Assembly: GCA_944326155.1 (NCBI GenBank)
Contig: CALVCV010000001.1
Location: 12,409 to 76,408 of the forward strand
Source: an uncultured Bacilli bacterium
GTDB taxonomy: Bacteria > Bacillota_I > Bacilli_A > ML615J-28 > CAG-313
Direction of reading: 5' to 3'
DNA length: 64,000 bases
Shown here: in pieces, positions 295 to 1,800 of the stretch
Layout: each line of letters opens with the position of its first letter
Position numbering within the stretch: position 1 is the first letter of the stretch
Program-made: the position numbers and the translations under genes
The notes under the pieces: model-generated
Databases searched by the model: none
Seen by the model: the letters and a program-made list of their open reading frames with translations, nothing else
Told to the model about the DNA's origin: nothing

Positions 295-1800
295 ATGAGT
301 AAAAAAATTATAATTTTTATGATGAGTTCATTTTTGCTTTTTTCATTATTATTTATTTCGTTTTTTGAAGCCTCACATGCTAGCGGTGAAATAAATAATT
401 CAACAAATGGTCTCGGTAAAACTATAAATATTGTGAAAGATGGTTATTCTGAATTTGATTCGTTAAGCACAAACCATGATGTACTGAACAATGAATGGCT
501 ACAGTCACAATTAGAAAATGTTCAATCATATGATGTTACTAGAACAACAGAAGTTATTAGTGCAAATAGTATAGAAGAATATCAAAATCAATTTTCGATG
601 ATGATAAATACTGAAAATGCTTTAGGAGCTGAATTTAATAATATTGTATTTGCAAGTATCGAGAAAAATTTTAATTTTACTGGTCATTTAAATTATGAAG
701 ATAATATTAGTCAATTTTATTATACTATATATAGTTATTTACCACTATATGGATATCGGCTACCAAATCACTTGGATTTGTCATTGTTTAAAAATAACTT
801 GAGTCAAGAGTATGTTGGTTTTTTGAATCTACTATTTAGAAATGCAATAACACCTGATATCTTTTTTGATCGATTTGGTACTCATCTTGTATCTTCAGCC
901 CATTATGGAGGTGTGATGAGTTTTAATTATACTGCTACATCAAATACAATAGTGCTAAATGGAGATGTATATTTAAATTTAAAAAATGGTTTAAATGCCA
1001 ATATCTTAGATAAGTTAACAGCGGGGACTGGTTTTAACTTTGATTCATCTTTAATTTTAAATAAAAGTAGAAGTTTATATAATGAAAAATTTAGTATTCG
1101 ATCTTTAGGCGGTAGTATTTTTTCTACAACTAGTTATGAATTTTTTGTAAATAATTATTCTACATGGGTAGATTCCATTGATGAAGATAATGCTGCGTTA
1201 ATTGGGTTGGAACCTGGTGGATTGATACCACTTTGGGACATTTTGCCTGTTCAATATCAAAATAAGCGTCAACAATTTAAAAATATGTGTGAAAATTATA
1301 TATCAAATAGGAGCTACACTGAAGGGTTCAATCACAACATAGATACTGAAATCATAGAGCACGATTGTGTAGAGATTAGACTAACTGAAATATTGGTTGA
1401 AGATGGAGATAGATTTGAAAACCCTTATGATATAATAGATTTCTCTTCTTTTTCTAAGTACGGCGTTGAAGTTTTGAGAAATTTAGGATATACTACATTA
1501 CATTTTACTTTGGAAATAAAAATTAAAGAAAAAAATAAAGGTTATCAACAATTTTGGATATATTCAAAGTATGAAGATAATGCTGCAAATATTTTATTTG
1601 TAGAGGATGACTACGAAGCTGGTGGATCTGCATTAGCAGATGAATATATATTAGAAAATTTTACTATAAATATTTCTATAGATAAAATTGAAACTTCATA
1701 TGATGGAAATTTTTTATACCTATTGTTTGGTGCAAGTGGTGCCTTTGGTGATGATTGGTATAATAAAGATGTAATTTTAACAAATATTGAAATATCATAA
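295..1800 (+). CDS. Secreted MACPF (membrane attack complex/perforin) domain protein, putative pore-forming toxin
   Basis: RBS aaaggag 7 nt upstream. N-terminal signal peptide (hydrophobic core, SHA|SGE cleavage-like site). Residues 194-206 FGTHLVSSAHYGG (nt 874-912) match the MACPF signature [YWF]-G-[TS]-H-[FYL]-x6-G-G. C-terminal ~170 aa is a beta-rich domain of unknown function. Confidence 0.65.
   Translation: MSKKIIIFMMSSFLLFSLLFISFFEASHASGEINNSTNGLGKTINIVKDGYSEFDSLSTNHDVLNNEWLQSQLENVQSYDVTRTTEVISANSIEEYQNQFSMMINTENALGAEFNNIVFASIEKNFNFTGHLNYEDNISQFYYTIYSYLPLYGYRLPNHLDLSLFKNNLSQEYVGFLNLLFRNAITPDIFFDRFGTHLVSSAHYGGVMSFNYTATSNTIVLNGDVYLNLKNGLNANILDKLTAGTGFNFDSSLILNKSRSLYNEKFSIRSLGGSIFSTTSYEFFVNNYSTWVDSIDEDNAALIGLEPGGLIPLWDILPVQYQNKRQQFKNMCENYISNRSYTEGFNHNIDTEIIEHDCVEIRLTEILVEDGDRFENPYDIIDFSSFSKYGVEVLRNLGYTTLHFTLEIKIKEKNKGYQQFWIYSKYEDNAANILFVEDDYEAGGSALADEYILENFTINISIDKIETSYDGNFLYLLFGASGAFGDDWYNKDVILTNIEIS

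Follow-up and report, generated by a model that had tools for sequence, protein, structure and literature searches.

Among the closest described systems are BSAP-1 to -4, pore-forming MACPF proteins of gut commensals that are bactericidal between strains, in which a variable C-terminal domain sets the receptor and protection is encoded next to the toxin (PMC12853789, PMC4999547). They are Gram-negative surface lipoproteins with a lipidated cysteine and an export signal, and they are countered by replacement of the receptor, not by an ABC transporter. BSAP genes adjoin a resistant orthologue of this receptor. The CDC-like two-component toxins of Bacteroidota, members of the same MACPF/CDC superfamily, are also antibacterial and have their immunity lipoprotein BcdI encoded in the toxin operon (PMC11169675). 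Plu-MACPF of Photorhabdus luminescens (2QP2), GNIP1Aa (6FBM) and Mpf2Ba1 (8B6U/8B6V) originate in Gram-negative species and have insect cells as their targets; they have about 500 aa, with the MACPF domain followed by a C-terminal beta domain, and the conversion of the Mpf2Ba1 monomer into a pre-pore and then a pore is documented (PMC10344926). Up to now, bacterial MACPFs have been studied functionally in Bacteroidales, Chlamydia and a few insect-active Gram-negatives, and a survey in 2010 listed none from Firmicutes (PMC2954219).

On the transporter side, the closest systems are those of the MacB superfamily (MacB, YtrEF, LolCDE/LolF, FtsEX, BceAB and YbbAP), whose substrates lie beyond the membrane or inside it and are not pumped across (PMC5985334, PMC12646458). 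The work of type VII ABC proteins is mechanical, and its substrates are extracytoplasmic or embedded in the membrane (PMC5985334, PMC12646458, PMC9169098).

In the 64-kb window (the whole stretch of DNA that was analysed), whose low-GC host is related to 'Staphylococcus sp. CAG:324' and 'uncultured Mollicutes UMGS116', the ORF at 295..1800 (+) encodes a protein of 501 aa. Pfam assigned its residues 142-335 to MACPF (PF01823; E=7.1e-12, 46.4 bits against a gathering score of 21.5), a family also matched by 86 of the 92 members of the family alignment. When the protein was searched alone against the PDB, only a marginal match to TgPLP1 was obtained (E=0.5); the 92-sequence profile matched GNIP1Aa (2e-16), Plu-MACPF (1e-15) and, at around 1e-12, C8beta, perforin-1, C6 and C9. 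An AlphaFold model made with a 4-sequence alignment was unusable (pLDDT 39), and the 92-sequence alignment was used instead, giving a pLDDT of 89 and a pTM of 0.81. All the best Foldseek matches of this model in the PDB were MACPF/CDC structures with a probability of 1.00 (6fbm, 4e-14; 8b6v, 9e-14; 2qp2, 1.5e-12; 3kk7, 4.9e-12; 3nsj, 5e-11). Thus Plu-MACPF, GNIP1Aa and Mpf2Ba1 are the best matches by both sequence profile and structure, at about 13% identity in structural alignments, and Bth-MACPF (3KK7), a gut-commensal MACPF like the BSAPs, is matched as well; 2QP2 and 3KK7 were the two structures that the first-pass annotation had proposed for comparison. No Pfam match to the CDC family (thiol-activated cytolysin, with domain 4 and the undecapeptide) was found in the protein, and CDC structures were distant fold matches only (1e-7 or weaker, about 9-10% identity). 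The product of the ORF is, by its sequence and predicted structure, a genuine MACPF-family protein, as had been assigned from the signature motif.

This motif, FGTHLVSSAHYGG (874..912, +), corresponds to residues 194-206 and was traced in the translation, the model, the family alignment and a pattern scan; in the model it begins where helix 187-194 ends and runs into the long strand 197-216. Its core is intact (G195-T196-H197, six residues, G205-G206), with exact H-x6-GG spacing. In the 92-member alignment H197 and G205 are invariant (92/92 each), followed by G195 (90/92), T196 (89/92) and G206 (68/92). The literal patterns [YW]-G-[TS]-H-[FY]-x6-G-G and PROSITE Y-x6-[FY]-G-T-H-[FY] were not matched, the deviating residues being F194, L198 and P187. 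The PROSITE form permits F at position 194. The only support for a chance match in a protein outside the MACPF family comes from these literal mismatches, with P187 in place of the leading Y; against it, the Pfam match, the profile search of the PDB, the confident model and the Foldseek result concur on MACPF, the motif lies inside the Pfam match and is therefore not a chance one, and the six frames of the window contain a single copy of a relaxed signature, [FYW]G[TS]H-x7-GG, which is absent from 200 shuffles. That reading is therefore refuted, and its probability is negligible. The literal expressions are diagnostic with known false negatives rather than defining: among 154 retrieved proteins, 3 fit the first pattern, 6 the PROSITE form and 131 the relaxed one. 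Position 194 is Y in 58 and F in 28 of the 92 members, and position 198 is V, L, I or M in 84 and F in 7, so that F194 and L198 are normal for the subfamily. The signature was thus read correctly, down to its F and L, whereas the label of a divergent member that was drawn from them overstated the case, this variant being the norm of a large subfamily.

The elements required for a MACPF pore were then located in the model. Four strands (84-90, 139-155, 197-216 and 263-271, by DSSP) make up the central sheet, with helices 93-126 and 223-255 between them, and two helical clusters were placed on either side of the motif, as expected from the sequence alone: TMH1 (aa 91-138; 565..708, +) upstream, between strands 84-90 and 139-155, and TMH2 (aa 217-262; 943..1080, +), between strands 201-216 and 263-271 and starting 11 residues past the signature. 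The outcome that the first-pass annotation had named as a refutation, a fold without the central sheet and its flanking helical clusters, was thus not what the model showed. In TMH2 the family beta-moment reaches about 1.0 against a protein mean of 0.64, making it the top-ranked window (about aa 203-255). The alternating hydrophobic pattern of TMH1 is weak (0.72-0.79 against the same mean), an observation that speaks against a toxin/immunity reading of the locus. Besides the two invariant residues, at least 90% of the family share G195, T196, G272/G273 and W291. The absence of cysteine-rich or EGF modules also held, as the protein has two cysteines only (C332 and C358) and the Pfam scan gave no domain besides MACPF. 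The pore-forming machinery looks intact in the alignment and the model, and the protein may form pores.

C-terminal to the MACPF part, an all-beta domain of about 150 aa (CTD; aa 354-501, 1354..1797, +) was modelled, with nine strands at pLDDT >90. The CTD had no Pfam family across the 92 members, and its profile found nothing significant among PDB sequences (chance-level matches only, best E=0.02). A novel C-terminal beta domain had been foreseen at about aa 330-501; its all-beta nature and its novelty to Pfam and to PDB sequences stand, and its extent of about 170 aa does not, residues 319-339 being still a MACPF helix. Conserved positions are R362, D370, D379, G416-Y-Q, G482, D486, W488 and N490. 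The domain has no sequence relationship with the C-terminal domains of Plu-MACPF, GNIP1Aa and Mpf2Ba1, as the profile match covers the MACPF part only, and it also differs from those of the BSAPs. The same module, in tandem, is present in non-MACPF lipoproteins with no ABC gene nearby, and it was found in surface lipoproteins with Listeria-Bacteroides repeats. Therefore, the CTD is not in itself an ABC-docking module, and a purely docking role was rejected; a role in binding may be proposed for it.

The N-terminus carries a hydrophobic segment (aa 1-27), modelled as a helix (2-20) with a disordered linker (23-34), and has the features of a Sec-type signal peptide (aa 1-29; 295..381, +): KK, a 20-residue hydrophobic core and S-H-A|S, where cleavage is predicted. 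Signal peptides with equivalent AxA-type N-termini are found across the family. No lipobox cysteine is present at the N-terminus, so that the protein has a plain Sec type-I signal, in contrast to the BSAPs. As the MACPF protein has its own Sec signal, export by the neighbouring ABC protein was rejected.

This ABC protein, which the first-pass annotation missed, is the most informative feature of the locus. Its gene (1810..4605, +) starts 9 nt past the MACPF stop codon, with a GGTGA ribosome-binding site ahead, and encodes a fused ATPase and FtsX-type permease of 931 aa, as judged from Pfam (ABC_tran, 3.5e-30; FtsX, 5.2e-13) and hydropathy. The ATPase (aa 1-230) has intact Walker A, signature, Walker B and H-loop motifs (GKSGAGKTT, LSGGQKQR, ILLCDEP and VISH); it is followed by TM1 (261-291), an extracytoplasmic domain at about 292-790 and TM2-4 (791-825, 841-873 and 887-917). 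The profile of the membrane part matched YtrF (2e-11), LolF (5e-11) and MacB (5e-9), the three closest solved membrane domains, and also LolC, FtsX and BceB. The protein shares with the MacB superfamily the four TM helices, the extracytoplasmic domain between TM1 and TM2 and the FtsX family of Pfam, and with MacB itself the fused N-terminal ATPase; on these grounds it is, at the level of sequence, a MacB-type (type VII) ABC protein. It differs from the superfamily in other respects. The Pfam family MacB_PCD (Porter/Sabre-type) was not matched in it or in 8 relatives; the conserved stretches G..LP...DE.VIT and I.G..DT of the ABC consensus look Porter-like by eye. No adaptor of the MacA/YknX kind (HlyD/MFP family) was found in the operon, which is thus unlike the MacAB-TolC and YknXYZ tripartite pumps, and the BceAB-type module was not matched either, the protein being fused, with 4 TM helices and no two-component genes nearby. 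Its partner, moreover, is a MACPF. Across the ABC proteins compared, the extracytoplasmic domain varies between 250 and 500 aa; that of the window, of about 500 aa, has about twice the size of the MacB domain. It is also far larger than in known resistance transporters, which speaks against a toxin/immunity reading. A reading of the locus as a defence system was rejected because the PADLOC matches to the ABC protein were generic ATPase matches.

The MACPF gene is the first of a three-gene operon, followed by the ABC gene and by a gene for a secreted Ig-domain protein, with gaps of 9 nt each and a ribosome-binding site for every gene. The unit is bracketed by terminator-like hairpins. The 5' one (160..203, +), with a T-run, closes the upstream gene, mscL, which was identified in identical contigs (RNA fold -15.1 kcal/mol, z=-5.7); the 3' one (6271..6316, +), also with a T-run, has -15.8 kcal/mol and z=-4.0, and for each of them 0/200 shuffles folded as well. 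A consensus scan found a sigma-70-like promoter candidate, TCGACA-16-TAAAAT (234..261, +; 10/12 positions matched), which is weak on its own, such sites being no commoner in the region than in shuffles. The ribosome-binding site of the MACPF gene, AAAGGAGA (283..290, +), was read directly in the sequence 4 nt before the ATG.

The third gene (4615..6222, +; 535 aa), with AAGGAG as ribosome-binding site, encodes a protein with an N-terminal hydrophobic segment (signal peptide or anchor), a domain of about 320 aa and one or more C-terminal Ig-like domains (Big_2, 7.5e-7). No Pfam or PDB match was obtained for the N-terminal domain, and NCBIfam and PADLOC had no family for this protein or for the MACPF. 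Its homologues form only 11 clusters, all of one architecture.

A word-indexed search had returned 4 relatives of the MACPF only; an exhaustive profile search revealed a large family, with 915 cluster representatives at E<=1e-3 and 111 at E<=1e-30. The contigs that could be placed have a low GC content, and most of them originate from gut samples of animals and humans. For the locus scan smaller alignments were used, the 92-sequence one being too diverse. An FtsX-type ABC gene was adjacent to the MACPF in 14 of 15 CTD-bearing lineages (L041 being the exception) and in none of the 6 that lack the CTD (Fisher p=1.3e-4). L066, which makes sixteen lineages with a CTD, also has an adjacent ABC but was left out of the test because it was found later through its ABC protein. 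The adjacency holds down to about 20-30% MACPF identity and through gene duplication (two tandem ABCs), and it is kept in L051-54, where an unfused ATPase and two FtsX permeases lie upstream of the MACPF. A full-text search of the literature for MACPF paired with FtsX or MacB gave nothing relevant, and we know of no report of an ABC partner for Plu-MACPF, GNIP1Aa or Mpf2Ba1.

These data bear on the possibility that the MACPF is non-lytic (an adhesin, for instance, or a factor in the interaction with nutrients or the host) or targets eukaryotes only, with the ABC as a co-transcribed neighbour of unrelated export or resistance function. Several bacterial MACPFs lack demonstrated lytic activity, and Plu-MACPF and Bth-MACPF reportedly showed none when tested, which also counts against a toxin reading; the family is present in animal gut metagenomes, and the CTD module recurs in the surface lipoproteins mentioned above. 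An unrelated neighbour, however, would not stay adjacent over some 15 lineages with varied gene orders and fusions, and the catalytic-core residues and the alternation of TMH2 are conserved. This explanation is regarded as improbable.

The preferred reading, to which we give about an even chance, is that the MACPF is a secreted pore-forming toxin and that the ABC partner would protect the producer. After cleavage of the signal peptide at about A29|S30, the soluble monomer would bind the target surface through the CTD, as BSAP-1 does, and oligomerise; the helical clusters 91-138 and 217-262 would then unfurl into beta-hairpins, with hinges at the invariant H197 and at G205/G206, and give a beta-barrel pore. 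The ABC protein would most likely protect the producer, ATP-driven movement of its extracytoplasmic domain clearing the producer's own membrane of toxin monomers or prepores, and the third gene would provide a lineage-restricted, secreted Ig-domain accessory protein. If the producer needs to be protected in this way, the target would have to be another bacterium and not a host cell. Precedents for parts of this scheme exist in the mechanical work of type VII ABC proteins noted above, in toxin operons of pore-former producers, which include dedicated immunity genes (PMC11169675), and in the C-terminal domain of a BSAP, which drives receptor binding (PMC12853789). The CDC-like toxins use a small CD59-like immunity lipoprotein and proteolytic activation, whereas at this locus there is one MACPF gene together with an ATP-driven transporter. 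To our knowledge, ATP-powered immunity to giant beta-barrel pore-formers is without precedent. Other observations run against the toxin/immunity reading. For a protein of 53 kDa, the peptidoglycan wall should be an obstacle on the way to a Gram-positive membrane, which makes both self-intoxication and attack on walled Gram-positives less obvious; the lineage L041 without an adjacent ABC and the CTD in lipoproteins without one are also of this kind.

The same pairing could be explained if the ABC were a working partner, whose extracytoplasmic domain holds, releases, activates or positions the MACPF at the producer surface in an ATP-driven manner, akin to the control of EnvC, PcsB and CwlO by FtsEX, with controlled or contact-dependent deployment as the outcome. 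Such a role would fit the strict adjacency that survives fusion, fission and duplication of the ABC genes, the very large and variable extracytoplasmic domains, the specific tie of the ABC to CTD-bearing MACPFs and the fact that the regulation of extracytoplasmic proteins by FtsX-type systems is well established (PMC7668044). It is at odds with the MACPF's own cleavable signal peptide and lack of a predicted anchor, with the CTD of other proteins that have no ABC at all, and with the ABC homologues without a MACPF, which fit immunity-type genes better than an obligate partner. We consider this role rather unlikely.

Comparison of the window with CAG:324 gave 55% identity for the ABC, 66% for the MACPF, 72% for the third protein and 62% for MurE; in L066, the values against the window were 29% (ABC), 30% (MACPF) and 46% (third protein). 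The low values of the ABC relative to its operon partners in CAG:324, and to the third gene in L066, would be expected if the extracytoplasmic domain of the ABC on competitors were the receptor of the CTD and the toxin-adjacent allele a resistant variant. The arrangement of the BSAP genes described at the outset is consistent with such an exchange of receptors, as are the binding of BSAP C-terminal domains to a specific surface protein (PMC12853789) and the existence of orphan ABC homologues without a toxin gene. However, with MurE at only 62%, it is not clear that the ABC diverges unusually fast, and exceptionally fast evolution was not supported; the orphans found are not at the locus of the cassette, the receptor would sit beneath the cell wall of the target, and an ATPase-coupled transporter is odd as a passive decoy. 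A degraded MACPF was looked for beside the orphan ABC homologues and none was found. Overall, immunity by a variant receptor appears quite unlikely.

The ORF at 295-1800 belongs to a large, uncharacterised subfamily of secreted MACPFs, so far found in low-GC gut bacteria. Two features of this subfamily are unreported in the literature searched: the unnamed C-terminal beta domain, which other surface proteins also carry, and the almost invariable association of the gene with that of a type VII ABC protein whose extracytoplasmic domain is unusually large. We tentatively propose, as an idea that may well prove wrong, that the MacB-type mechanotransmission ABC is a dedicated, co-evolving partner of the MACPF in gut bacteria of the Gram-positive type, acting by prepore stripping or by toxin arming or release at the cell surface, and that the family represents widespread, unrecognised protein bacteriocins of these bacteria. 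Should the pairing be incidental, the protein would be just one more MACPF detectable by Pfam. If, on the other hand, the ABC is an immunity or arming factor, the locus would reveal how a producer copes with a perforin-like toxin of its own, would assign a new job to the mechanotransmission ABC family and would suggest that gut communities are shaped by a new class of antibacterial proteins.

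The motif reported by the first-pass annotation, FGTHLVSSAHYGG, is the translation of window positions 874-912 (+) and occupies residues 194-206 of the 501-aa protein encoded by the ORF at 295-1800. Across all six frames of the window the relaxed pattern [FYW]G[TS]H-x7-GG was found a single time, and in 200 shuffles it never appeared; the motif was enclosed by a Pfam MACPF match (PF01823) spanning aa 142-335 (E=7.1e-12; 46.4 bits versus a curated cutoff of 21.5). The MACPF signature was confirmed and, judged by these pattern and profile results, is no chance match. In an alignment of 92 family members, H197 and G205 were present in all 92, G195 in 90, T196 in 89 and G206 in 68. 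Position 194 was Y in 58 members and F in 28, position 198 was aliphatic (V/L/I/M) in 84 and F in 7, and position 187, the leading Y of the PROSITE pattern, was Y in 49 and is P in the window protein. The literal pattern [YW]G[TS]H[FY]x6GG was found in only 3 of 154 retrieved proteins, whereas the relaxed form was found in 131. Therefore, the window protein is typical of its subfamily and does not stand out as unusually divergent.

When the PDB was searched with the window protein as a single sequence, the result was nearly empty (TgPLP1, E=0.5), and a word-indexed homologue search yielded four proteins. When 1.84 billion cluster representatives were searched exhaustively with a profile, 915 relatives were retrieved at E<=1e-3, and 111 passed the stricter E<=1e-30; the relatives were mostly about 500 aa long and matched over their full length. 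The profile of the 92-member alignment matched the PDB sequences of GNIP1Aa (2e-16), Plu-MACPF (2QP2; 1e-15) and C8beta, perforin-1, C6 and C9 (~1e-12), with the match confined to profile positions 60-341. Pfam MACPF was passed individually by 86 of the 92 members, no further Pfam domain recurred across them, and NCBIfam held no model for the protein. Membership of the MACPF family is almost certain.

The structure was predicted with AlphaFold, which gave a pLDDT of 39 from four sequences and of 89 (pTM 0.81) from the 92-sequence alignment; the latter model was used. Its order is a strand (aa 84-90), the TMH1 region (aa 91-138, helices 93-104 and 112-126), a long strand (139-155), helices (162-194), the long strand carrying the motif (197-216), the TMH2 region (aa 217-262, helices 223-243 and 251-255), a strand (263-271), helices to aa 339, a low-confidence linker (~aa 340-353) and an all-beta domain of nine strands (aa 354-500). 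Foldseek of the model against the PDB returned MACPF/CDC proteins only: GNIP1Aa (4e-14), the Mpf2Ba1 pre-pore (9e-14), Plu-MACPF (1.5e-12), Bth-MACPF (3KK7; 4.9e-12), perforin (4.8e-11) and TgPLP1 (target-normalised TM-score 0.56-0.57). Therefore, the motif lies at the proper place for a MACPF signature. Two helical clusters had been expected either side of it, around central strands, and the model contains all of these elements, with TMH1 ~55 residues upstream of the motif and TMH2 starting 11 residues downstream. Averaged over the family, the i/i+2 alternation of hydrophobicity in the protein peaked at aa 203-255 (motif strand plus TMH2), and that of TMH1 was only slightly above the protein mean.

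Residues 1-29 comprise KK, a 20-residue hydrophobic core and S-H-A/S, without cysteine. Equivalent AxA-type N-termini were seen in relatives, with lipoboxes instead in some longer ones, and we infer that the protein would be exported by Sec and cleaved by signal peptidase I. The sole difference from its public representative, A26P, lies inside the signal peptide (codon 26, window 370-372). In none of the 92 members did the C-terminal all-beta domain (CTD) match a Pfam family, and a 30-sequence CTD profile gave nothing significant against PDB sequences (best E=0.02). Conserved in the domain are R362, D370, D379, G416-Y-Q, G482, D486, W488 and N490. Two copies of the module were also found in each of two lipoproteins without a MACPF domain, P0121 (locus L062, 3227-4636) and P0130 (L064, 2408-3676), the former additionally carrying Listeria-Bacteroides (Flg_new) repeats. 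These copies keep all conserved motifs (R..ITDsGR..D, GYQ, RYGASG..DDW.NKN), and no ABC transporter adjoins either gene. The CTD is an unnamed domain family.

The MACPF gene (295-1800, +) is followed by genes for a 931-aa ABC protein (1810-4605, +) and a 535-aa third protein (4615-6222, +), with gaps of 9 nt and a ribosome-binding site for each (283-290, +, for MACPF). Upstream lie a promoter-like site (234-261, +) and a hairpin with T-run ending upstream mscL (160-203, +; z=-5.7), and downstream a second hairpin with T-run (6271-6316, +; z=-4.0), beyond which are PBP2B, MurE and MraY. The start of PBP2B (+) is ambiguous: TTG 6350 for the longest ORF (643 aa) versus ~6397 (628 aa) in public calls on an identical contig. 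In the ABC protein, an intact ATPase (aa 1-230) is followed by TM1 (261-291), a ~500-aa extracytoplasmic domain and three helices of FtsX type (791-917). Outside the ATPase, its profile matches were YtrF (2e-11), LolF, MacB (5e-9), LolC, PsdB, FtsX and BceB, which mark it, by homology, as a member of the type VII superfamily of mechanotransmission ABCs (PMC5985334). Neither an adaptor protein nor a two-component system was present in the operon. The third protein has a signal peptide or N-terminal anchor, a ~320-aa domain of no known family and Big_2 Ig-like domain(s), and its homologues are few (11 clusters). In locus L066 it is 46% identical despite 30% for the MACPF and 29% for the ABC protein, which identifies it, at sequence level, as an accessory protein that a single branch of the family has conserved.

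The GC content is ~28%, and contigs identical or nearly so were found in metagenome assemblies. Human or animal gut samples are the source of many related loci. The closest species representatives, labelled 'Staphylococcus sp. CAG:324' and 'uncultured Mollicutes bacterium UMGS116', have the same gene order and 67% MACPF identity. The remaining window is ordinary chromosome, with cell-wall genes, ValRS, Prp, Obg and PPDK. A T-box leader (16153-16365, +; RF00230, 136 bits) directly precedes an ORF (16410-19040) for a class-I tRNA synthetase that bears a ValRS C-terminal arm. An L21 leader (30576-30646, +; RF00559, 47 bits) lies upstream of Prp (30972-31313) and Obg (31676-32953), and since no ORF reaching 100 aa was seen between leader and Prp, the L21 gene must be short. 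A 799-aa ORF (13369-15768, +) with cytidylyltransferase-like, CN-hydrolase and NAD-synthase domains would be an apparent NadD-NadE fusion. At ~45026-45646, between a PHP-domain protein (+) and an alpha/beta hydrolase (-), all large ORFs flip from the + to the - strand, and the maximum of the cumulative GC skew falls at 44-46 kb, a picture that resembles a replication terminus or inversion boundary.

The loci compared, drawn from scans of genomes and metagenomes and from exact-protein look-ups, were classed by local HMMs for the MACPF domain, CTD, ATPase and FtsX helices. An FtsX-type ABC was adjacent in 14 of 15 lineages with CTD-bearing MACPFs, versus none of 6 whose MACPFs (431-, 439-, 628-, 840- and 1241-aa architectures) lack the CTD (Fisher's exact test, p=1.3e-4; L066, CTD-bearing with an adjacent ABC, was found later via its ABC protein and left out). 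A fused ATPase-FtsX gene lay directly downstream in 13 of the 14, some lineages having a tandem pair, one gene with a short and one with a long extracytoplasmic domain. Such pairs (L017 7497-12097, likewise L018, L043 and L060; often ~260 versus ~430 aa) suggest a heterodimeric transporter. In the remaining arrangement (one lineage, L051-L054), an unfused ATPase and two FtsX permeases lie directly upstream and overlap the MACPF start codon (L051 2526-6957: 233, 359 and 415 aa, then a 475-aa MACPF-CTD); in L052 the MACPF ORF is in two pieces. One CTD-bearing lineage, L041, has no adjacent ABC, and ABC homologues without MACPF occur at L065 and L067 (no MACPF remnant was found near them). That the genes stay neighbours although identity falls to 20-30%, and although they have been duplicated, fused or split, argues strongly for a functional link between MACPF and ABC.

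On the 632-kb contig of a related genome that bears the orthologous cassette L013, a second MACPF (L034 6001-7296; 431 aa, no CTD, no ABC nearby) precedes a surface protein of 930 aa in which Listeria-Bacteroides repeats are combined with a GDPD domain. This MACPF might cooperate with the CTD-bearing one, as the long and short components of CDC-like toxins do.

The analysis establishes homology to MACPF proteins, the predicted fold, conservation of core residues and N-terminal signal-peptide features, as well as the three-gene unit bracketed by terminator-like hairpins and the lineage-wide type VII ABC association. The MACPF protein is probably a pore-forming toxin. The secreted monomer would bind its target through the CTD and oligomerise, and TMH1 and TMH2 would refold to a beta-barrel, the route taken by Mpf2Ba1 and other MACPFs (PMC10344926). 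Type VII ABCs extract or free molecules at the outer face of the membrane (PMC12646458, PMC9169098), and immunity genes are found in toxin operons of the MACPF/CDC superfamily (PMC11169675). ATP-driven movement of the extracytoplasmic domain may keep the toxin off the producer membrane, an immunity role proposed tentatively; toxin and immunity combined have an even chance of being correct. A need for protection would suggest a bacterial rather than a host target. Two other readings are less likely: the ABC protein might arm or release the toxin in the manner of FtsEX, or, rather improbably, the MACPF might be non-lytic or host-targeting, with an unrelated role for the ABC protein.

Closest by sequence and fold are three bacterial proteins of two domains, GNIP1Aa, Mpf2Ba1 and Plu-MACPF, and closest by ecology the Bacteroidales secreted antimicrobial proteins (BSAPs). 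In the BSAP manner, the ABC ectodomain could be the receptor and the linked allele a resistant one, which we consider rather improbable. The window protein differs from all of these systems in host type, plain Sec signal, unrelated unnamed CTD and near-obligate MacB-type ABC partner. The bacterial MACPFs in a 2010 survey all came from Chlamydiae, Bacteroides, proteobacteria, actinomycetes or cyanobacteria (PMC2954219), and full-text literature searches for MACPF paired with FtsX or MacB returned nothing relevant. The motif call itself was ordinary and correct; what makes the locus interesting is the conserved MACPF-ABC cassette.
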